Shown: piece by piece, positions 16,597-58,761 of the stretch
How the letters are laid out: every line of letters begins with the position of its first letter
Numbering within the stretch: position 1 is the first letter of the stretch
Source of the DNA: Opitutales bacterium
Lineage (GTDB): Bacteria > Verrucomicrobiota > Verrucomicrobiia > Opitutales > PNEW01
Assembly (NCBI GenBank): GCA_965219535.1
Contig: CBDCNV010000002.1
Location: forward strand, 1,993,305-2,057,304
Length of the DNA stretch: 64,000 nucleotides
Reading direction: 5' to 3'
Notes under the pieces: generated by a model
What the model was told of the DNA's origin: nothing
The model's input: only the letters and a program-made list of their open reading frames with translations
Databases searched by the model: none
Program-made: the position numbers and the translations under genes

Positions 16597-17781
16597 ATGT
16601 CACCAACGACTAAACTGAGTGCATTGGAAAAAGTATTAGGCCGTCTAGACGACCTGGATTCGGTAAGCTTGTCTAATTTAGTTCAGCGATTAGCTCGCGA
16701 ACGAAGCCTCCTGGAGACTGTTTTTAATACAATTCGTGAAGGGATACTCGTTATCGATCAAAATGGCATTATTGAATACGCCAATGCCGCTGCCGGTAAA
16801 CTCATCGGTCTATCCCTGAAAGACCAGGGCCAGGCTGTCCTCTGGAAGCTTGTACCGGAACTAATTCGTACGCTTGATATTTCAAGCGACGGTGAATATC
16901 GAGCAGAATTAGTGGTAACTCGTGACCTGGAACTTAACTATCCGGAGACACGTTTTGTTCGTCTCTATATAATGCCGATTAAAAGTATAAATGATGACGA
17001 TTTGGTAAGTAAAAACTACGCTGTGATTATCTCAGACGTCACTGAATTACAGCTTTCAACTCGGGAGCAGATTGAGAATGAAAAAATTTCGTCCGTTATC
17101 ATGTTGGCTGCTGGTGTCGCTCATGAGTTAGGAAATCCTCTGAATTCACTTACCATCCACTTACAATTGATCAACAGGCAATTGGAGAAACTGAATAATT
17201 CAAATGAGAAAGAAAAAATCAAGAACCAGCTTGATGTATGTACAGGTGAATTAGAGCGTCTAGATGGAATCATTACGCACTTTTTGGAAGCCATTAGACC
17301 TTCCCCTCCAGACTTTCAGGATCTTGATCTTTTAAAAGCACTTGAGGAGGCCTTTGAATACCTCGGAGAGGAACTGAATGATGCGGGTATCAATGTGGAT
17401 ATTGAAGTATCTGATGATTTACCGGTCGTCATGGCAGACGGGAATCAGATTAAACAGGTTTTTTTCAATCTCATTACTAATGCGCGTGAATCAATGACGA
17501 GTGGTGGTACGATCAAAGTCCGAACACGTAGCGATGATGATTATGTATATATCCTAATTGGGGATTCAGGGGTGGGGATTAAAGAGGAAAACTTGAGCAA
17601 AGTATTCCAACCATATTTCACGACGAAGAAGAGTGGTCATGGATTAGGGATGATGATCGTACAACGAATAATGCGCGATCATGGTGGACAAATTGGTATC
17701 GATAGTCAGTCGGAGGTTGGTTCGGTGTTCACCTTGCAATTCCCTCAGAAGCATCGGCGCATTCGTCTACTCGAGAGTTGA
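16597..17781 (+). CDS. Cytoplasmic PAS sensor histidine kinase (NtrB-like)
   Basis: 394 aa with no TM segment. PAS-like N-terminus, H-box AAGVAHELGNPLN, N/G boxes (NLITNARES, DSGVGI, GHGLGM). Confidence 0.85.
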   Translation: MSPTTKLSALEKVLGRLDDLDSVSLSNLVQRLARERSLLETVFNTIREGILVIDQNGIIEYANAAAGKLIGLSLKDQGQAVLWKLVPELIRTLDISSDGEYRAELVVTRDLELNYPETRFVRLYIMPIKSINDDDLVSKNYAVIISDVTELQLSTREQIENEKISSVIMLAAGVAHELGNPLNSLTIHLQLINRQLEKLNNSNEKEKIKNQLDVCTGELERLDGIITHFLEAIRPSPPDFQDLDLLKALEEAFEYLGEELNDAGINVDIEVSDDLPVVMADGNQIKQVFFNLITNARESMTSGGTIKVRTRSDDDYVYILIGDSGVGIKEENLSKVFQPYFTTKKSGHGLGMMIVQRIMRDHGGQIGIDSQSEVGSVFTLQFPQKHRRIRLLES

Positions 17782-17902
17782 TCCGACTTTAGCCGTATTC
17801 ATGGCGATTAATCACTTGCGAAGTGGGACAAAATTACCCATTCTCAATACTTATTTCAGTTACCACCTGCTATTGCGTGAATTTCAACCTGACTGATTGA
17901 TT

Positions 17903-19270
17903 ATGCCGGCTTCCATTCTTATCGTAGATGATGAAAAACATACCCGTGAAGGGCTGCTTCAAGCGCTGGAGGATACTTTTGATGTTTATCTTGCATCCAG
18001 TGCAGATGAGGCCTTCAATCTGTTCGAAGCGGAAAAATTTGATATAGTTCTCACGGATTTAAAGATGGCTGGAAAATCCGGGTTAAAGGTCATTGATAAG
18101 GCAATAAGCCTGCCAGTAAAACCGGTCACCATAATGATGACAGCGTATGGCAATGTCGAAACGGCAGTAGAAGCGATGAAGCGAGGGGCTTTTGATTTTT
18201 TGACTAAACCCCTCAATTTGGAAAAATTAGAAATTTTAATAAAACGGGCACTAAGGTCTCGCGAATTGGAAGAAGAGAATATAGCATTGCACAGAAGACT
18301 CGACCGAAAGTATAGTTTCGAGGGAATTATTGGAAATTCGAAAGTATTACAGGATGTGATCGAGAAGGTAAAACTGGTTGCTCCTTCTAAAACCACGGTT
18401 CTCCTGGATGGGGAGACAGGAACCGGCAAGGAATTAATCGCGCAGGCGATACATCAGAATAGCGGTCGCGCGAGGCAACCGTTTATCGTTGCTCATTGCG
18501 CTGCATTACCCGCTAGCCTTCTTGAAAGTGAACTTTTTGGGCATGAAAAAGGAGCTTTTACCGGTGCAGTCGAGCGTCGAATAGGTCGTTTTGAAGCGTC
18601 ACAAGAGGGGACTCTCTTTCTCGATGAAATCGGCGATATCGATCAGTCGACGCAAGTAAAACTCCTGCGTTTTATCGAGTCTAAAACATTTGAACGATTG
18701 GGGAGTATCAAGCCCATTACAGTTAATGTTCGTCTTGTTGTAGCTACAAATCAAAAATTGGATGAACTCGTAAAAAAAGGTTTATTTCGTGAAGATTTAT
18801 ACTACCGGCTTAATGTCGTGTCTATCACCATGCCGCCCTTGCGCAATCGTCGAGAGGATATATCACTCCTCTTACAGCATAGTATTCAAAGGTTTAGCGA
18901 GGAAAACGAGGTGTCTCCAGTTAGAATAGATCCCTCTGCGATGAAGGTACTAGAACAATATGACTGGCCGGGAAATATACGCGAATTACGCAACTTTGCT
19001 GAAAATGTCGTCGTGATGAAGCGAGGGGGCAACGTCACTAAGTATGATCTAGAGCGGAAGTTTTTAAACGAAGGGGGGGACTTGAATTATGATGATGAGA
19101 TGATAAATCCCTTGTCGGTCGAAGAAAATGAAAAGCGATTATTGCGTAATGCCTTAGTGGAAGTCAGCGGTAACCGTACTAAAGCAGCGAAATTGTTGGG
19201 AATTAGCAGGCGCACCTTACACCGTAAGCTTCAGCAATGGCCAGAACTTGATATTGTCGATGAAGTGTAA
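17903..19270 (+). CDS. Sigma-54-dependent response regulator (NtrC family)
   Basis: Receiver domain (ILIVDDE...DLKMAG), AAA+ domain ([14 protein letters not shown] loop in [15 protein letters not shown]), C-terminal Fis-type HTH. ATG at 17903 preferred over the upstream TTG at 17897. Confidence 0.9.
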
Positions 19271-19392: not shown

Positions 19393-21204
19393 ATGGCAAA
19401 TTTTTATCAGCAAATAGTCTACTGGATCGATTTGGGTCTAGGAAAAAAAATAATCACCGTAGTGGCATTAGCAGCTATTACCGTTGTTTATTCATTTTAC
19501 CACGGTTATAAACGCTATAACGGGCCAGGGCATGAAGATGTTATAGAAATGGCGGTTCTCGGAAAACAACTATCCGAGGGGAAAGGATTTTCAACTTTGG
19601 TTGTATACCCACAAGCGGTTGCCGTTTTGGAAAGTAAACATGACGACTATATTTACAAAGAAAATCAATTGCATCCTGAACTCTATCAAGCGCCTCTTTA
19701 CCCATTAATTCTTGCAACTGGATTGAAAGTTATGGGGAAGTCTTACCGGAGAAATGTATGGAAAGATCCCGTATCTAAGGCGCGTGGAGTCTATCCTGCT
19801 TTTAACGGAGATTATTATCTTATCATTGTTAATGTTATTATTTTCTGGCTAGTTTGTTTGCTGACCTACTTTCTAGGTCGCCTCTTGTTTACCCCTACGG
19901 TGGGATTGCTGGCATATTTAGCTGTGCTCTTTTCATTAGGTCTTTGGGATAACATTCTGTCGGTATCAGGGGTGGTGGTGCTTATGGCTTTGTTATTATT
20001 ATTATTTATACTATGGAGCATTATTGAGCGCGCCCGTAGTGCCGAATCAGTTGAAGAGATAAGCAATATAAAACCTTGGTGCTTTCCCTTGATGGGATTC
20101 ATCCTGGCATTGCTCTTTCTAGCAGAATACACAGCGGGATTAGTCGGTATTGTTTTCATCGGTTACTGTTTAATATTTTTCCCTCGTGGAAAGCTATTAG
20201 CTCGATCTCTGGGCATTGCCGTTCTTATTTTTCTGCTCACGATTTCTTTGTGGGTATGGCGCAATATCGAGTGGACTGGTCATCCTCTGGCGCTGGCAGG
20301 ACAATACCTCAGCATGCGAGCAGGTGATTCGACCGCCGAACCGGATGAAATAAAAAGAAAATTTGATCATGAATTACCGCCTTTGAAGATTAAAAAGGTC
20401 ATTAATAAAGGTTTTAAGGGTATTGAAGTTAATTTAAAGGATCACATTTGGAAAGGTGGTGGCTATTTATTTTGTGCTTTTTTTCTAACGGGTTGTCTCT
20501 ATCGGTTTCGTCAGCGAACAACCAATGTTATGCGCTGGTGTGCATTCATAACGGTTTTTTCTCTCCTTTTATTTCAACCCTTTTTTAGTAGTGGCCTCGC
20601 TATAAGGTTGCCCGCTTATTATGTCACACCGTTGATTATTGTCTTTGGCTGCGGATTTTTTATGATCCTTTTGGAAAGTACTAAAAAGCGAGACCGTTGG
20701 GAAAAACTGTTGGTTATCGTACTGGTGCTGGTTTTTCACAGTTTACCCTTAGTGCATAATCTAAGTGAGCCACGAAGAGTTCCCTTTAAATACCCGCCTT
20801 ATATTCCATCCATCATGGCTTATACGCGTACTGATCTAAAAGTAAAGTTTCGCCCTGAATACGGATTTATGGCAGATATCCCAGCAGGTCTTGCCTGGTA
20901 TTCTCAACAGAAAGTCTGGGCAAAACCAAGTGATTATAGTGGTTTCGTAAATGTGTTTTTACGGCAGAATATAGGAGGACTTCTCTTATCACCCGCCATT
21001 CTTGACAAACCTTATTTCAGTAAACTTCTCCCTGCGGACGCCGAATTAACCGGGGGGATAGGGGAAACCCGACATTGGGGTGATATATATCACGGTTTAG
21101 AGCAGGGTAAGCTGCCAGAATACTTTCCCTTACAAATTCCATTGCGATTGGCCGTCAATATGTTTGTTCTAATTAACCCTCTTGCTACTCAGCGTTTTCG
21201 GTGA
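19393..21204 (+). CDS. Large polytopic membrane protein, possible GT-C-fold glycosyltransferase (ArnT/PMT-like)
   Basis: 603 aa with >10 predicted TM helices and an acidic motif in the first loop (GHEDVIEMA). Assignment rests on architecture only. Confidence 0.4.
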   Translation: MANFYQQIVYWIDLGLGKKIITVVALAAITVVYSFYHGYKRYNGPGHEDVIEMAVLGKQLSEGKGFSTLVVYPQAVAVLESKHDDYIYKENQLHPELYQAPLYPLILATGLKVMGKSYRRNVWKDPVSKARGVYPAFNGDYYLIIVNVIIFWLVCLLTYFLGRLLFTPTVGLLAYLAVLFSLGLWDNILSVSGVVVLMALLLLLFILWSIIERARSAESVEEISNIKPWCFPLMGFILALLFLAEYTAGLVGIVFIGYCLIFFPRGKLLARSLGIAVLIFLLTISLWVWRNIEWTGHPLALAGQYLSMRAGDSTAEPDEIKRKFDHELPPLKIKKVINKGFKGIEVNLKDHIWKGGGYLFCAFFLTGCLYRFRQRTTNVMRWCAFITVFSLLLFQPFFSSGLAIRLPAYYVTPLIIVFGCGFFMILLESTKKRDRWEKLLVIVLVLVFHSLPLVHNLSEPRRVPFKYPPYIPSIMAYTRTDLKVKFRPEYGFMADIPAGLAWYSQQKVWAKPSDYSGFVNVFLRQNIGGLLLSPAILDKPYFSKLLPADAELTGGIGETRHWGDIYHGLEQGKLPEYFPLQIPLRLAVNMFVLINPLATQRFR

Positions 21205-21290: not shown

Positions 21291-21319
21291 ATGAATAAAG
21301 TGGTAACTCTTATACCTCT
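21291..21319 (+). pseudogene. 5' 29 nt (start codon plus first signal-peptide codons) of the OMP gene, split off by IS3 copy 1
   Basis: atgaataaagtggtaactcttatacctct joins in frame to 22669 onward once the IS and one CTCT copy are removed. Confidence 0.8.
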
Positions 21320-21346
21320 TGATCGGACCCCGTTTTTCGTACCAAT

Positions 21347-22312
21347 TTAAGTGAGAGAGTTACCGGGTGTTAATGGTTTTAGGATTGATGTATATGAGAG
21401 ATCTTGGCGAAGTGAGGGCGTAGCCCGAACGCGGCCAAGATCGGAAAGGAATCTGACAAACTCTTGTGGGCTTTTGAAGCCTAAACGACTGTGGGGATGT
21501 TCATGGTTATAGGTCTGACGCCATTGTTCGATTACCACTTGCGCTTCAGCCACGCTGAGCAACACTTCACGGTTCAAACACTCATCGCGTAAGCGGTTGT
21601 GAAACGACTCGATGAAACCGTTTTGCCAGGGACTGCCCGGATCGATATAGATCGCCTTTATGTTATTACCGGACAACCACTGCTGCACTTGATGAGCAAT
21701 GAACTCACTGCCGTTGTCACTACGGATATAGCTGGGAGGTCCCTCCTCTTCAATGGCCTCGCTAAGCACAGAGAGGACATCGGTTGAGGTGAGTTGACGA
21801 GCGACCCGGATATCCAGGCATTTACGCGTATATGTCTTCGCTTCGCTTGAGTGTCGTCGCTTTCAGCTCCTCGGTACATCGATTAGAGTCATCATCTTTA
21901 ATGGACCGCCGTTGTCTGTACGATCATGGACAAAGTCCCAGGACCAAACGTGATTGCGACCCTTTGCTTTAGTAGGTGACCCCGTAGAGACTCCTTGACG
22001 GTGTCTGCCCTTTTTCGGGGGCTTTACCTGCAGCCCTTCTGAACGTCGTACCGCCTGGACAAACTTCCTGCTTGTTGTCCAGCCTTCCTTTACCAGCAAG
22101 GCACGGATGCGCCGGTAACCGTAGCGGGGATGTTTCCAGGACAAGCTCACAATCCGCTCGACCAACCGCTGAGCTTTCTCACTGGCCTGTTTGGGCCGGT
22201 AACTGAACGTTGACCAACTCAGGCTGAGATAAGCACAAGCCCTCCGCAACGAGCACAACCCTTTCTCAGCCGCAGCTTTTACTACTCGTTTCTTCTGCTT
22301 TGGGCTCACCAT
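21347..22312 (-). pseudogene. IS3 orfB (DDE transposase/integrase core) with in-frame TGA at 21863-21865
   Basis: ...NHVWSWDFVHD...IRSDNGSEF...PGSPWQNGFIESFHNRLRDE... gives the DDE triad context. The TGA lies between the first and second catalytic Asp. Confidence 0.75.
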
Positions 22313-22599
22313 TTTTTTGACAGCGTTTCCTCCATTACCTGATTCTTGAGCATTTGATCTGCGAGCAGCTTCTTCAGCTCGGTATGTCAGGCCTTCTCGC
22401 TTGCGCTCGTGAATTCTTTTTCCAGCTCTTTAAATCGCTTCGCATCGGCAAGTTCTAAATTGCCATATTTTTTACGCCAGCGATAGAAAGTCTGTTCGCT
22501 CAGGTTGTTTCCACGGCAGATTTCCTGTACCGTTTTACCGGTATCGGCTTGCCGCAATATTGTTATAATCTGTTCTGTTGTGTATCTTTTTCTTTTCAT
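22306..22599 (-). pseudogene. IS3 orfA (HTH protein) with in-frame TGA at 22387-22389
   Basis: MKRKRYTTEQIITILRQADTGKTVQEICRGNNLSEQTFYRWRKKYG... is a typical IS3 OrfA. The frame continues after the TGA as HTELKKLLADQMLKNQVMEETLSKKW*. Confidence 0.75.
22312..22318 (-). promoter_or_regulatory. A7 slippery run, candidate -1 programmed frameshift site (orfA to orfB)
   Basis: AAAAAAA lies at the orfA/orfB overlap, and orfB is in the -1 frame relative to orfA. This is the canonical IS3-family arrangement. Confidence 0.6.
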
Positions 22600-22664
22600 T
22601 GAGGTTATCTGTTTATCCCGATAACCTCTCTCTGTAAATGATACGATTTTTGGGGGTCACTCCA

Positions 22665-23821
22665 CTCTTCTGATATCGCCCTTATTATTTGGAGTTTACG
22701 CTCCTATCCCGGAACAAGAACAAGGTACGCCATTAACGATCAGTTTGAAAGCCGGTGGTTTTTACGACACTAATATTTTTGGGAATTTTACGAATGAGAT
22801 AGATAGTGGAGCGATCAGTTTTGCGCCACAATTTAAGTATAATGCTTCGCTTTCCGAGCAAACATTTTTATCCGGATTGTATAATTTAGAAATTATCTCC
22901 TACGATAATCGTCCCACGGATGATCTTCTTTTTAATAATGTGCTCGGTCTTAACGTCTATCATTCGTTTGCGCCCAACATTAATTTTCAGATTTCTGAAA
23001 ACCTCTCTATTATTGATAATCCGGAATCGTTGCTTGTAGGTGTATTACAATCTAACCAGTCTTATAATCATAATCTTTTTAATGTCAGCTTAGGGGTCGA
23101 TTTATCAGAAAAACTGGGAGCTGTTTTCAAATTTAGAAATACAGACTTTGGCTATGATGATCAGAGTCTTGGATCACTTCTAGATCGCAATGAGCATCTC
23201 CTGGGCATTGAAGGAGATTTCAATTTGTCGCCCATCATGACCGCAGTCGGGGAATTTCGTTATCAAGATATAAACTATGATCAAAACGGCTTCGATAAAA
23301 ATAGTGATTCGGTTTTTTTCCTGACGGGAGTAAATTACAAACCCGATGAGAAGTTAGATGTAAGAGGAAGGGTTGGGGTAGAGGACCGCAACCGACAATC
23401 CAGCACTGATAATGCAACATTTTATGGTGAATTTACCACGTTCTACCGTTATCAGGAGGAATCGTTTATCTCGGCTGGGGTGACTTACGATATACGTGAG
23501 ACTTCAAATCCACTTAATTTTACTGACGATGAAGTTTTAAGTGTATTTTTAAACGCTCAGCATGCACTTAGCGGAGCCCTTACAGCTTCCGGATCGGTAT
23601 TATATAATGCGTCAGAATTACTTCGCAGAGATCCCACCACGGGCCCCAATACCGAGGATGATACGATTCGTGTAGGCTTTGGCTTAACTTATAAGCATTC
23701 TGATAATTTATCCATTATCATTGATTATGATTATGATAAAACGGGTTCATCCGATCCTGTGCGTGAGGAAAATAGGCACCGCGTCGGGATCAATTTCCGT
23801 TATACATTCGGAATATTTTAA
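22665..23821 (+). pseudogene. Outer-membrane beta-barrel protein gene, 5' end severed by IS3 copy 1
   Basis: The frame is open from the IS boundary (LLISPLLFGVYAPIPEQEQ...). Alternating beta-strand pattern with a C-terminal ...RYTFGIF. The ORF track only recovers it from an internal TTG at 22745. Confidence 0.8.
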
Positions 23822-23922
23822 TAAGAATATAGATATTTCCGGTCTAGAGTGATAGCCAAAGCAGGTGCGGGTCATGCTTGACCGGCATTTCAATTAGGAA
23901 GTATAATCTAAAGCTTGCGCAT

Positions 23923-26103
23923 ATGAACAATGATGACCAATCAATGCCCATTGGCCTTTCCCTCTCCGATTTGCTGAGAGTGTTGCGGGCAAGAAAAACG
24001 TTGATTGCGCTGATTCTCTTAATATGCCTGCTTACGACCATTGTTTTTACTTGGAGTCAACCGAAGTGGTACAACGCGATAGCTGGAATTAGGGTGGAGA
24101 AACCGGAAAGTGAGGTCGTTCTTTTTGGACGACAGTCTACAGGAAATTTCGACCCCTATTTTATCCGTGAACAAGTTCAGATCATCCAAAGTAAATCGGT
24201 TCTCGCTCCAGTGATAGATGGGTTTTCGCTTCAAAAGAAACTCAGTGCAAAACTTGGGGGAGCGCTTACTGAAGAAGAGACTTATTTATATTTGATCAAA
24301 AAAATGCTTAACGTTGATTCTCAACCGGGAACGCCGCTTATTGATATCGGTGTGCTCATGCAGGAAGAACCTGTTTTAGCCGCGGAGTTGGCTAATGCGA
24401 TCGCTATAGCTTATGCTCGTAACCGTATCGCTTTTGCTACCTCAGGGCAAACCGAAGCGATCGAAAAATTACAGGAGGAATTATTATTACAGGAGAGCTC
24501 AGTCTCTGAACAGCGAGATAGGGTAGAGAGTTTGCGTAAGGAGCTACAGATATCTGGTGTTGATATTGCCGCGCGTACTACCCAGTTGGATATTGAAAAC
24601 TTGCGTCAGTTAGAACGTAGCTTAATCGCTTTAAAAGTTGATGCCATTGCGAGAAAGACTCGGTTTGAAAGATTTAGTAAGGTCCCTTTGGGAGAGCGAT
24701 TCAGGCTGGTTAATTCTGAACTGATACCTGACACTAATATATTGAATCTGATGCAGGCCCATATGATTGCCGATCAGAACTTCACACAATTGGAAGGTAG
24801 ACTGGGTGAAGCGCACCCTGATCTGGTGGCAGCGGCAAATAATCTACAGAAAATTAGTGAGCAGTTGGCTAACCTGCTCCAGGGCTATGAAGAGGCATTA
24901 GAGATCTCCTACATTGAAGCGCAAGCCCGCGTATCTGAACTGGAAAAACAACTGGAGAGCGCTCGAATTGATCAGATTTATTCCGCGGAAAATAAAATGC
25001 GCCCGTTTGAAGAAGCGGTGACTAAGCTGCAAGATGAAGAGAATCTCTACAAAACACTTAAAATTACATTAAGACAGCGTGAAATCGACTTTCAGGTACC
25101 TAAGCGCACAATTGAAATTCTTAATGAAGCGGTTCCTGCCCGCCGTCCATCAAAGCCAAGTTGGGTAATCAATCTTGGGCTCGCGATAATCATGGGTAGT
25201 ATTATTGGACTGGGGAGTGCATTTCTTTTCGATTTTTTTGATACTAGTTTTCGCTCCATCGATGATTTGGAACGAATATTGCAACTCCCGGTAATGGGAG
25301 TAATTAAGAAGGACCAGCCATTAGTGACTGCTGATAATTTTAATACTTTTGAAGCTGAACCTTATCGCGTTATTCAAACCAATTTGAATTTATCAGGGAA
25401 TGATAAAAAAAGTAATGTGATTATTGTTCAATCTGCAGGCCCGGGTGAAGGTAAATCATCTACCCTTTATAATCTCGCTTCTGTAATGGCTTTTAGCGGA
25501 TTGAAAATTCTTGTTATCGACTCCGATCTTCACCGGCCCGTTCAACATAAATTAATGGAAGCAAAACGAACGCCAGGACTTATTGATATCCTGATGGGAG
25601 ATAAGAAACCCAAGAGTATTATTCAGCATACAAAAAATCCTAATCTGGATGTTATGCCCGCCGGTCATAGCGCTCATTTCAATCTCAGTGTAATTCACGT
25701 TAATCTACTGATAAAGATATTGGACGAATTAGGTTCTAAATACGATAAGATCTTTCTCGACTCTCCCCCCATAATTGGAATTAGCGACGCATCGATACTT
25801 GCCAGCGTAAGTGATGGAGTAATCATTGTCATCCAACATAAACGCACAACTACATCCATGTCTTTGCGTGCGCGACAAATTTTGCAGAATGTTGAAGGAA
25901 ATATTTACGGCGTTATTTTAAATCAGGTCCCAGAAGTTGGTGATGAAGATTACAATTATTATACGAGTAATTATTCTTATTACAGCTCTGCAGGTAGACA
26001 AAAAGAAAGTAGCTCACCATTTAATACAGACAATGTAGTTGAAAATGAAATAGAAACGTTCGAAATTGAGGAATCAGATAAAAAGAATTTCCCCTCGGTC
26101 TGA
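23923..26103 (+). CDS. Polysaccharide co-polymerase / BY-type tyrosine autokinase (Wzc/GumC/EpsB-like)
   Basis: N-terminal Wzz-type TM, long coiled-coil periplasmic region and a second TM. Kinase domain with Walker A (SAGPGEGKSST), A' (VIDSDLHRP) and B (IFLDSPP), plus a C-terminal Tyr cluster (DYNYYTSNYSYYSS). ATG at 23923 preferred over the track start at 23878. Confidence 0.85.
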   Translation: MNNDDQSMPIGLSLSDLLRVLRARKTLIALILLICLLTTIVFTWSQPKWYNAIAGIRVEKPESEVVLFGRQSTGNFDPYFIREQVQIIQSKSVLAPVIDGFSLQKKLSAKLGGALTEEETYLYLIKKMLNVDSQPGTPLIDIGVLMQEEPVLAAELANAIAIAYARNRIAFATSGQTEAIEKLQEELLLQESSVSEQRDRVESLRKELQISGVDIAARTTQLDIENLRQLERSLIALKVDAIARKTRFERFSKVPLGERFRLVNSELIPDTNILNLMQAHMIADQNFTQLEGRLGEAHPDLVAAANNLQKISEQLANLLQGYEEALEISYIEAQARVSELEKQLESARIDQIYSAENKMRPFEEAVTKLQDEENLYKTLKITLRQREIDFQVPKRTIEILNEAVPARRPSKPSWVINLGLAIIMGSIIGLGSAFLFDFFDTSFRSIDDLERILQLPVMGVIKKDQPLVTADNFNTFEAEPYRVIQTNLNLSGNDKKSNVIIVQSAGPGEGKSSTLYNLASVMAFSGLKILVIDSDLHRPVQHKLMEAKRTPGLIDILMGDKKPKSIIQHTKNPNLDVMPAGHSAHFNLSVIHVNLLIKILDELGSKYDKIFLDSPPIIGISDASILASVSDGVIIVIQHKRTTTSMSLRARQILQNVEGNIYGVILNQVPEVGDEDYNYYTSNYSYYSSAGRQKESSSPFNTDNVVENEIETFEIEESDKKNFPSV

Positions 26104-57036: not shown

Positions 57037-57344
57037 CTAAATCGTTTCCTCATAAATTGTGACCGTAATTTCATCACCGTCTTCATTGATGAATGTTTCA
57101 TCGATGGTCTGCGTCACCTGTTCCGTTCCGTCCGACTTAACATTGTTCTGAGAGACCAAGGTATCAAATCCAGGTGTCGTCGATCCGCTCTCAGCTACTA
57201 CGATGTCGGCTTCGTTCGTCTGAATGAGATCGCCTCCAGCGATCCGCAATCCCGGATTTGACGCGGCAACCGTAAAAGACCCTTCTCCAAATAGAATGTT
57301 TGGCACCGCATCACCTGAAGCGTCGATGTCTCCGATTAAGACAC
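57037..57344 (-). pseudogene. 3' remnant of a surface/adhesin-like protein gene, truncated by IS3 copy 2
   Basis: The minus-strand frame is open right up to the IS boundary (…VLIGDIDASGDAVPNILFGEGSFTVAASNPGLRIAGGD...) with no upstream start. G/D/T/S-rich beta-type sequence. The rest of the gene is absent from the other side of the IS. Confidence 0.6.
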
Positions 57345-57409
57345 TGGAGTGACCCCCAAAAATCGTATCATTTACAGAGAGAGGTTATCGGGATAAACAG
57401 ATAACCTCA

Positions 57410-57703
57410 ATGAAAAGAAAAAGATACACAACAGAACAGATTATAACAATATTGCGGCAAGCCGATACCGGTAAAACGGTACAGGAAATCTGCCGTGGAA
57501 ACAACCTGAGCGAACAGACTTTCTATCGCTGGCGTAAAAAATATGGCAATTTAGAACTTGCCGATGCGAAGCGATTTAAAGAGCTGGAAAAAGAATTCAC
57601 GAGCGCAAGCGAGAAGGCCTGACATACCGAGCTGAAGAAGCTGCTCGCAGATCAAATGCTCAAGAATCAGGTAATGGAGGAAACGCTGTCAAAAAAATGG
57701 TGA
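57410..57703 (+). pseudogene. IS3 orfA with in-frame TGA at 57620-57622
   Basis: Identical to copy 1 orfA. The frame reads ...KELEKEFTSASEKA*HTELKKLLADQMLKNQVMEETLSKKW*. Confidence 0.75.
57691..57697 (+). promoter_or_regulatory. A7 slippery run, candidate -1 programmed frameshift site
   Basis: tcA AAA AAA tgg tga in the orfA frame. The -1 frame reads aaa aaa atg gtg agc... (orfB). Confidence 0.6.
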
Positions 57704-58662
57704 GCCCAAAGCAGAAGAAACGAGTAGTAAAAGCTGCGGCTGAGAAAGGGTTGTGCTCGTTGCGGAGGGCTTGTGCTTATCTCAGCCTGAGTTGGTCAAC
57801 GTTCAGTTACCGGCCCAAACAGGCCAGTGAGAAAGCTCAGCGGTTGGTCGAGCGGATTGTGAGCTTGTCCTGGAAACATCCCCGCTACGGTTACCGGCGC
57901 ATCCGTGCCTTGCTGGTAAAGGAAGGCTGGACAACAAGCAGGAAGTTTGTCCAGGCGGTACGACGTTCAGAAGGGCTGCAGGTAAAGCCCCCGAAAAAGG
58001 GCAGACACCGTCAAGGAGTCTCTACGGGGTCACCTACTAAAGCAAAGGGTCGCAATCACGTTTGGTCCTGGGACTTTGTCCATGATCGTACAGACAACGG
58101 CGGTCCATTAAAGATGATGACTCTAATCGATGTACCGAGGAGCTGAAAGCGACGACACTCAAGCGAAGCGAAGACATATACGCGTAAATGCCTGGATATC
58201 CGGGTCGCTCGTCAACTCACCTCAACCGATGTCCTCTCTGTGCTTAGCGAGGCCATTGAAGAGGAGGGACCTCCCAGCTATATCCGTAGTGACAACGGCA
58301 GTGAGTTCATTGCTCATCAAGTGCAGCAGTGGTTGTCCGGTAATAACATAAAGGCGATCTATATCGATCCGGGCAGTCCCTGGCAAAACGGTTTCATCGA
58401 GTCGTTTCACAACCGCTTACGCGATGAGTGTTTGAACCGTGAAGTGTTGCTCAGCGTGGCTGAAGCGCAAGTGGTAATCGAACAATGGCGTCAGACCTAT
58501 AACCATGAACATCCCCACAGTCGTTTAGGCTTCAAAAGCCCACAAGAGTTTGTCAGATTCCTTTCCGATCTTGGCCGCGTTCGGGCTACGCCCTCACTTC
58601 GCCAAGATCTCTCATATACATCAATCCTAAAACCATTAACACCCGGTAACTCTCTCACTTAA
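57697..58662 (+). pseudogene. IS3 orfB (DDE transposase) with in-frame TGA at 58144-58146
   Basis: The 149-aa and 140-aa track ORFs are in the same frame (both start positions are 1 mod 3). They are separated only by one TGA: ...MTLIDVPRS*KRRHSSEAKTYTRKCLDIRVARQLTSTDVLSVLSEAIEEEG... Confidence 0.75.
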
Positions 58663-58761
58663 ATTGGTACGAAAAACGGGGTCCGATCAATGATGTTGTT
58701 ACTTTTGGTAATTAATAAACCTAAACAACCATAATTATTTATATACTAGCTATTTATGAAA

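Follow-up and report, generated by a model that had tools for sequence, protein, structure and literature searches.

Insertion sequences (ISs) are well known to inactivate porin genes, among them ompK35 and ompK36 in Klebsiella, oprD in Pseudomonas aeruginosa and carO in Acinetobacter, where the pressure for loss comes from antibiotics. Elements of the IS3 family move by a copy-out/paste-in route in which the donor stays in place, and precise excision is not normal for them. Phase variation of exopolysaccharide (EPS) has also been ascribed to an insertion sequence, IS492, in Pseudoalteromonas atlantica (Higgins et al. 2007, PMC1794265, known here from its entry in the references of PMC11208160). 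This report concerns a stretch of 64,000 nucleotides (nt) of Opitutales DNA, hereafter the window, in which an IS3-family element interrupts a gene for a predicted outer-membrane β-barrel protein (the barrel gene) beside a gene for a Wzc-like polysaccharide co-polymerase (PCP) and bacterial tyrosine kinase (BY-kinase). All coordinates are window positions, and L-numbers and P-numbers denote related loci and related proteins, respectively. The source is an environmental, long-read metagenome, and all of the genomes compared are metagenome assemblies, some of low coverage. The interruption is probably a recent insertion at codon 10 that acts as a one-way knock-out of the barrel gene, and one case of a loss that recurs in nature.

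The interrupted barrel gene and its insertion site

The gene and the element within it are laid out as follows:

21291–21319, plus strand: 5′ stub of the barrel gene, codons 1-10 (MNKVVTLIPL), with its ATG at 21291
21316–21319, unstranded: left target-site duplication CTCT; empty sites have one CTCT only
21320–22664, minus strand: IS3-family element, copy 1, 1345 bp, orfA then orfB, TG...CA ends (from hidden Markov model (HMM) matches and the ends)
22665–22668, unstranded: right target-site duplication CTCT (from sequence reading)
22669–23821, plus strand: 3′ part of the barrel gene, codons 10-393 and stop, an open frame to the TAA at 23819-23821

An earlier note, made from these letters alone, had described an IS3 copy flanked by CTCT repeats within the signal-peptide codons of an outer-membrane protein gene. 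The repeats, the bounds of the element and their coordinates were all borne out by sequence reading, and the family assignment by transposase HMM matches. Removal of the IS together with one CTCT gives an open reading frame (ORF) of 1182 nt and 393 amino acids (aa), with the N- and C-termini that had been foreseen, and the same junction is present in related empty sites; if the IS alone is deleted and both CTCT copies are kept, a frameshift results. The rest of the barrel gene outside the IS is without further lesion. The insertion does fall within the codons of the putative signal peptide, at codon 10 in the hydrophobic core, and the interrupted 5′ stub runs into the IS to stop after 19 aa (MNKVVTLIPLDRTPFFVPI, then a stop codon). 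Within the 3′ part, the earliest possible start is a TTG at 22745, which corresponds to residue 36 and lies beyond both the signal peptide and a VYAPIPEQEQG block. As no start codon precedes residue 36 in the 3′ part, exportable barrel cannot be made and the IS-bearing allele is, as predicted from its sequence, a null. The expectation that export of the barrel is abolished agrees with this, as the remaining 3′ ORF would carry no signal peptide.

The uninterrupted allele, which the earlier note had suggested seeking in relatives, was found. A scan of genomes with the single rebuilt protein returned 2 loci only; a rebuilt-protein search combined with context look-ups recovered syntenic Opitutales loci at ~98% nucleotide identity. 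In the syntenic loci of six assemblies (L001, L005 (OY829953.1), L133, L134, L135 and L136) the empty-site sequence ATGAATAAAGTGGTAACTCTTATACCTCTTCTGATATCGCCC is present exactly as predicted, in every case with a single CTCT and no IS. The flanks of L134 match those of the window over 6.4 kb with a single mismatch, yet the site is without the IS; therefore, the insertion postdates almost all strain divergence. The insertion is very recent, and its description as recent and clean is sustained by this near-identical locus without the IS and by the perfect CTCT duplication. L008, a separate assembly from a different sample, has the IS at the same site with identical junctions and is otherwise 99.99-100% identical to the window over 17 kb. 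Other copies of this IS are flanked by 4-bp duplications, AAAT in L009 and TAAC in L010. A description of the insertion as a 3-bp duplication and a 1346-bp IS, which an extra T shared by 21319 and 58690 would allow, was set aside in favour of 4 bp, the length seen at the other copies. For copy 1, an inversion between the two inverted IS copies of the window was ruled out, because the sequences on its two sides are the parts of a single gene and bear a matched duplication.

The L134 locus, assembled at 5x, also contains nine small insertions 180-350 nt downstream of its empty site (L134 2740-2920, equivalent to window 22843-23016), among them 17 nt of IS sequence and 23 nt from the 5′ region of the barrel gene itself. 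These are probably a consensus artefact of a population mixed for the presence of the IS. L134 was dropped as an independent lesion, insertions of IS and barrel pieces being typical of an artefact of a 5x consensus.

That the rebuilt protein is a β-barrel, as the earlier note had proposed, is supported by three lines of evidence. It scores 29.9 bits against PF10082 (BBP2_2, putative beta-barrel porin 2; cut-off 23.7) over residues 143-388. An AlphaFold2 model from a 51-sequence alignment contains ~18 long antiparallel strands, with a predicted local distance difference test value (pLDDT) of 88 and a predicted template-modelling score (pTM) of 0.82, residues 1-26 being unstructured and of low confidence. 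The best Foldseek matches in the PDB are all outer-membrane barrels (Occ/OprD, AlgE, TonB-dependent receptors and MtrB), with template-modelling scores (TM-scores) of ~0.5. The EpsL model TIGR03014 is not reached (15.4 bits, cut-off 275).

The rebuilt N-terminus is natural. Approximately 50 homologues of 391-393 aa, at 35-43% identity, align from residue 1, which refutes the internal TTG at 22745 as the natural start, and an intact 393-aa protein with an N-terminus identical to the rebuilt one is found as P0183 and in L133. Features in line with a Sec signal peptide comprise a Lys in the n-region and hydrophobic residues 4-18. In the alignment of homologues a near-invariant block, (A/G)VYAPIPEQEQGK, directly follows the hydrophobic segment and is usually preceded by A-x-A. 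Cleavage is therefore more likely to occur before VYA, after G18 (between LFG and VYA here, and between A-x-A and VYA in most members), than after VYA as had been suggested; the latter site would place Pro at +1. The segment VYAPIPEQEQG(K) itself, at residues 19-30 (22690-22725), is nearly invariant in a family otherwise 35-43% identical, which suggests a conserved functional motif at the N-terminus of the mature barrel.

Loss of the barrel gene in relatives and its possible causes

The 90%-identity cluster that holds the cut product of the window comprises 14 distinct proteins, of which 1 is full length (P0183, from L133), and the barrel gene is broken in 10 of the 11 genomes represented by contigs of at least 97 kb. 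At least six independent disruptions are verified in DNA, the IS allele among them, and more are apparent at the protein level:

Window and L008: IS at codon 10 (DNA, two assemblies)
L135, circular, 5.05 Mb, 21x: GAA>TAA at codon 326 (DNA)
L136, circular, 4.98 Mb, 20x: GGA>TGA at codon 312 (DNA)
L005, 4.49 Mb chromosome: TAA at codon 253 (DNA)
L001, 13x: extra C in a C-run at nt 1004 (DNA)
L002, L003, L004 and L006, ~79% nt identity: TAA at codon 28 (DNA, three assemblies, four loci)
L007, ~80% nt identity, 4x: extra G at nt 988 (DNA, low confidence)
Further cluster members: tails shifted in frame near residues 227, 248 and 350 (seen in proteins only)

In the P0181, P0182 and P0184 backgrounds the stop at E326 is combined with other lesions. 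Four neighbouring genes served as controls, encoding the Wzc-like protein, a 603-aa GT-C glycosyltransferase, a 581-aa Rieske protein and a 394-aa kinase; all are full length on essentially all long contigs, the exceptions being a Wzc frameshift in L005 and one 578-aa GT-C protein. The ratio of non-synonymous to synonymous substitution rates (dN/dS) of the barrel gene is 0.12-0.20, as against 0.04-0.24 for its neighbours at comparable divergence. This holds even at dS ~1, and thus the barrel was constrained until shortly before each lesion.

As to the nature of the lesions, three of the four nonsense changes in L005, L135, L136 and L002 are G>T transversions (GAA>TAA twice and GGA>TGA) and the fourth is CAA>TAA. 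The Wzc-like gene of L005 (OY829953.1, 9284-11459) is split by a frameshift near residue 500, besides the stop in the barrel gene. Between sister lineages (the window versus L002 and L007) the dS of the barrel gene is 0.59-0.98, whereas that of several neighbours ranges from 1.5 to saturation; the lower value may reflect recombination or codon constraint.

The barrel gene is the third gene of a compact envelope-glycan cassette (regulator, GT-C, barrel, Wzc) that is conserved across Opitutae. The order histidine kinase, sigma-54 response regulator, GT-C glycosyltransferase, barrel and Wzc-like PCP/BY-kinase is kept in close relatives and in Opitutae with only 37-41% barrel identity. The first 15 kb of the window are housekeeping in character (secY, map, rpsK, rpsD, rpoA, rplQ, guaA, hisD and an aminotransferase), and the cassette and its surroundings comprise, besides the barrel gene:

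16597–17781, plus strand: histidine kinase (domain matches, synteny)
17897–19270, plus strand: sigma-54 response regulator (domain matches, synteny)
19393–21204, plus strand: 603-aa multi-pass GT-C (ArnT/PMT_2-like) glycosyltransferase (homologues with PF13231 or ArnT-like/RgtA-D-like names)
23878–23907, plus strand: sigma-70-like promoter, TTGACC-18-TATAAT, 11/12 matches, 16 nt upstream of the Wzc ATG (consensus match only)
23923–26103, plus strand: Wzc-like polysaccharide co-polymerase/BY-kinase, 726 aa (Wzz, GNVR and AAA_31 domains, Tyr cluster)

The Wzc-like protein matches PF02706 and PF13614, scores 126.4 bits against TIGR01007 (cut-off 108), has a C-terminal Tyr cluster (DYNYYTSNYSYYSS) and is of the same length, 726 aa, as in relatives. 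It is followed by a tRNA-Gly gene, a hexapeptide transferase gene and unrelated genes. The earlier note had placed the barrel at the head of a Wzc/EPS locus. It does adjoin Wzc, but it is the third gene of a cassette and not the head of a large EPS locus, and no Wza-type exporter, exosortase or glycosyltransferase cluster was found in the window.

With regard to Wzc itself, the transposase is directed away from it and from the 3′ portion of the barrel gene, and no promoter-like site on the plus strand emerged when the last 600 nt of the IS were scanned for consensus matches. The promoter-like sequence upstream of Wzc is identical in L001, and Wzc expression is probably kept from this promoter of its own. 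The IS contains two weak terminator-like hairpins on the plus strand (22447-22464 and 22539-22554), and in distant relatives the gap between barrel and Wzc is only 20-53 nt.

Taken as a sequence of events, the favoured account would run as follows. A copy of the IS3-family element would have entered the hydrophobic core of the signal peptide, generating the CTCT duplication. In the marine populations sampled, loss of the surface barrel would be favoured time and again, or tolerated at the least, most plausibly for the reason that the protein is a surface target, such as a phage receptor, or a costly component of the envelope. Null lineages would be short-lived, such that the gene looks constrained over longer times. 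Finally, the event would be a one-way knock-out with no switch, the element being of the copy-out/paste-in type and its transposase broken by two small inserts.

Selection for loss is favoured over neutral decay, its main rival, in which the lineage would no longer need the barrel, for example owing to redundancy or a shift of niche, and random lesions would gather in the gene to no advantage. Decay of this kind would account for the many lesion types spread along the gene, for the alleles with multiple lesions (P0181, P0182 and P0184) and for the additional frameshift in the Wzc gene of L005. It is nevertheless an unlikely, if serious, explanation, because the barrel dN/dS equals that of the intact neighbours even at dS ~1, which indicates constraint until very recently, because the lesions focus on one gene in 10 of 11 genomes and its four neighbours are almost never affected, and because the barrel is intact, at 391-393 aa, in the ~50 more distant relatives. 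The on/off switch raised in the earlier note would require reversible phase variation, with the IS excised via its 4-bp repeats to restore the gene and so control the envelope or EPS. Removal of so clean an insertion would indeed restore the ORF, and L134, whose site is empty and whose flanks show 1 mismatch over 6.4 kb, might represent a revertant instead of an ancestor. Yet the L134 consensus is garbled at 5x and cannot tell the one from the other, IS3 elements leave the donor in place and are not normally excised precisely, and OrfA and OrfB are prematurely stopped by TGA in both window copies. Moreover, most of the other null alleles are irreversible nonsense or frameshift changes, so that loss occurs independently of reversibility. 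A switch is thus unsupported and very improbable. Laboratory adaptation, also raised, finds no support in environmental metagenomes in which most relatives have irreversible point lesions in the same gene.

A further possibility is that the main effect of the insertion is regulatory, in the form of altered Wzc transcription through an outward promoter or polar silencing, and the earlier note had likewise allowed for transcription of downstream genes from the IS. The adjacent, co-oriented barrel and Wzc genes, only 20-53 nt apart in distant relatives, suggest an operon, and the two weak hairpins within the IS are terminator-like. IS-driven transcription of Wzc is unsupported, however, because there is no outward promoter-like site in the part of the IS scanned, the transposase faces away and Wzc has a near-consensus site directly upstream, at 23878-23907. 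The point-mutation alleles of relatives strike the barrel ORF itself, which argues for the barrel as the thing lost, and a mainly regulatory effect is very improbable. The possibility that a multi-copy IS was misplaced into the gene by mis-assembly has to be considered in a long-read metagenome, all the more so as the L134 consensus contains artefacts with IS fragments. It is scarcely credible, however, given a perfect 4-bp duplication of the same length as at other copies of the IS, identical junctions in two independent assemblies from different samples, and flanks that are the two halves of one gene.

Some points weigh against the reading of a one-way knock-out within a pattern of recurrent, selected loss. 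In the relatives of low coverage (L007 at 4x, L134 at 5x and L001 at 13x) the frameshifts could be consensus errors; this explanation applies less readily to the three nonsense alleles that lie on contigs of chromosome scale, of which two are circular at 20-21x, or to the codon-28 stop present in three assemblies. In-frame stops can be read through at a low level (PMC7918605), and some of the nonsense alleles may therefore be leaky, although this does not apply to the IS or frameshift alleles. Ancestral co-transcription of barrel and Wzc, and hence some polarity of the IS on Wzc, is possible. The selective agent, whether phage or other, is pure inference.

An IS insertion alone would be a routine knock-out, and the value of this one lies in its context. 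The barrel gene is broken independently in nearly every sequenced genome of this marine lineage, yet its long-term purifying selection is normal, a pattern that would be the signature of a surface structure under strong, fluctuating pressure, for example from phage or grazers. IS insertions and point mutations would then be interchangeable routes to the same phenotype, and the locus offers a concrete candidate for a receptor or envelope gene in an uncultured group.

The IS3 element and the small inserts within it

Three minus-strand ORF pieces of the element match PF01527 (HTH_Tnp_1), PF13276 (HTH_21), PF00665 (rve) and PF13683 (rve_3), and the model NF033516 (transpos_IS3) is matched at positions 1-60, 88-241 and 263-368. 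The imperfect terminal inverted repeats, the 5′-TG...CA-3′ ends and a duplication within the 3-5 bp range are those of an IS3-type element. Its parts and its second copy in the window are:

22600–22664, minus strand: IS left end, upstream of orfA, with terminal inverted repeat TGGAGTGACCCCCAAAAATCGTATCATTTA... (sequence)
21320–21360, minus strand: IS right end, with terminal inverted repeat (reverse complement TGATCGGACCCCGTTTTTCGTACCAATTTA...) (sequence)
22312–22318, minus strand: A7 slippery run where orfA and orfB overlap, A AAA AAA here and A AAA AAG in intact relatives
22384–22414, minus strand: mini-insert A, within orfA, 31 nt in place of 4 nt (net +27), with an in-frame TGA (absent from L009-L012)
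21834–21876, minus strand: mini-insert B, within orfB, 43 nt in place of 1 nt (net +42), with an in-frame TGA and the motif CCGAGGAGCTGAAAGCGACGACA (absent from intact copies)
57345–58689, plus strand: IS copy 2, 100% identical, inverted, with the same two inserts at 57595-57625 and 58133-58175 (sequence comparison)

The A7 run is presumably the −1 frameshift site expected of the family. In the intact relatives L009-L011, OrfA is 88 aa and OrfB 306 aa, and the two overlap at A AAA AAG. In the window copy, OrfA is shortened from 88 to 70 aa and OrfB from 306 to 149 aa, each by an in-frame TGA that falls within a short foreign insert, and the copy is not autonomous. An alternative code, with TGA as a sense codon, was ruled out, as TGA ends 15 of 44 long ORFs of the window; it is also contradicted by the position of both TGA codons within segments that intact IS copies do not carry. 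Copy 2 has the same two inserts and, therefore, neither copy in the window can supply transposase.

Copy 2 adjoins a tRNA-Pro(GGG) gene, 72 nt away. No target-site duplication was found at this copy, the flanks of which read ..ACAC and ATGA.. in transposase orientation. On one side (flanks inspected at 57300-57344 and 58690-58760) an ORF is open to the IS end (VLIGDIDASGDAVPNILFGEG...) and is without its 5′ part, and on the other an AT-rich spacer is followed by the tRNA-Pro(GGG) gene. This arrangement suggests an IS-mediated deletion or rearrangement.

Related inserts occur at four different sites among copies of this IS, two of them in the window. A third is specific to L008 (6929-6961, corresponding to ~21704-21705 in the window), where 33 nt (TTCCGAGGAGCGAAGCGACGACATGCGAAGCCA) replace AG for a net gain of 31 nt and frameshift OrfB; the same variant is also encoded by P0124 on OY829953.1. 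Either the inserts are mobile, it would seem, or the IS copies exchange sequence by gene conversion. The fourth is in a Tara Oceans Illumina contig, L012. All four lie in transposase sense, start with T(A/T)C(C)CGAG and replace 1-4 nt of their target. Three of the four contain CCGAGGAGC(N)GAA(N)GCGACGACA or a near variant of this core, which in the orfB insert reads CCGAGGAGC(T)GAA(A)GCGACGACA; the orfA insert is more diverged. Examination of the four inserts as miniature transposable elements bearing inverted repeats (MITEs) or Rickettsia palindromic elements (RPEs) found no duplication and no matching termini.

The 21-nt core is widespread, with matches on at least 120 JGI metagenome contigs (L013-L132) of marine, freshwater, soil and sludge origin. 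When 125 matches were sorted roughly by pattern, ~31 fell in the apical loop of attC-like hairpins, ~40 in the T-loop of tRNA genes or tRNA 3′ fragments, some of which are beside tyrosine recombinase genes, and ~20 took the form GTT-core-(A/T)GACCGG-hairpin-CCGGAAC, in which the hairpin clearly covaries. Among the T-loop cases is a tRNA-Ser(GCT) gene in a tRNA array, which becomes a normal tRNA once its 55-nt insert is removed. A PolX gene carries the element, in frame, where a linker joins the polymerase and PHP domains. The core is in the transcribed sense wherever orientation could be set, and it contains GCGAAGC, a sequence that forms an exceptionally stable DNA mini-hairpin. Tandem 36-nt repeats of AGGCCGAAGGTTCACACCGAGGAGCGAAGCGACGAC were also observed, in three copies in L073 (5243-5350) and in two in L040 (370-426), directly upstream of a tRNA-like 3′ end (..CCAATCCTCTCGCCCCGACCA).

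A number of origins were considered for the motif and rejected. A phage link was not upheld, there being only 3 matches in a viral contig collection. Programmed translational bypass was ruled out by the lack of matching take-off and landing codons and by the +31 nt of the L008 insert. The string CCGAGGA...CGAC resembles the hammerhead CUGANGA...GAAA, but invariant positions are broken, and an Rfam search at the motif gave no match at the gathering threshold or at E<=1, leaving no known ribozyme. An adapter or other technical artefact is excluded by the presence of the motif in both Illumina (Tara, JGI) and HiFi assemblies, and contradicted further by its occurrence at orthologous positions in diverged PolX genes. 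A literature search for the motif sequence found nothing. The tiny inserts that disable this IS point to a widespread sequence element without a described family. A tentative proposal, which we regard as rather doubtful, is that they represent a class, not described before, of extremely small elements (~21-55 nt), mobile or templated, with an invariant T-free core, CCGAGGAGCGAAGCGACGACA, followed by a covarying hairpin. Such an element might act at the level of single-stranded DNA or RNA, and might even be removed from transcripts.

Comparison with described systems

RPEs and other MITEs can insert in frame into genes (reviewed in PMC10969869). In common with RPEs, the mini-inserts are short repeats with hairpin potential in coding genes, are sometimes in frame and are tolerated, as in the PolX linker. 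Unlike RPEs, which are ~150 bp long and confined to one genus, they measure 21-55 nt, share a 21-nt core that does not vary between marine, freshwater, soil and sludge metagenomes, and also occur in tRNA T-loops and the loops of attC-like hairpins. They further differ from both RPEs and MITEs in being without clear terminal inverted repeats or target duplications.

With respect to the barrel protein, the setting resembles that of EpsL (TIGR03014), an outer-membrane protein found in exopolysaccharide loci of the XrtB/PEP-CTERM type, in that a barrel of ~390 aa lies beside a chain-length determinant/tyrosine kinase; in one distant Opitutae relative a VPDSG-CTERM protein and a Bac_transf gene are also nearby. 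In contrast, the score of 15.4 bits against the EpsL model is far from the 275 of its cut-off, and a literature search on EpsL, PEP-CTERM and the outer membrane returned nothing. AlgE, another barrel for polysaccharide export, is among the structural matches, but at a TM-score of ~0.5 it is no better than Occ porins or TonB-dependent-receptor barrels.

Superficially, the locus is like the IS492/eps switch. Both concern a marine bacterium and an IS in a gene related to envelope polysaccharide, with a clean duplication that would allow exact restoration. However, IS492 belongs to the IS110 family and is subject to frequent precise excision, whereas the element here is an IS3 with a DDE transposase that is broken, and no evidence for excision of the window IS was found among the assemblies compared.

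The clinical porin genes differ in that they come from clinical isolates under antibiotics, whereas the window belongs to an uncultured marine Opitutales lineage, and its barrel is a member of PF10082, a family of unknown function, within a Wzc/GT-C cassette. Nevertheless, the two share an IS within the coding sequence of an outer-membrane barrel that yields a clean null, and in both, independent nulls by IS, nonsense or frameshift recur.

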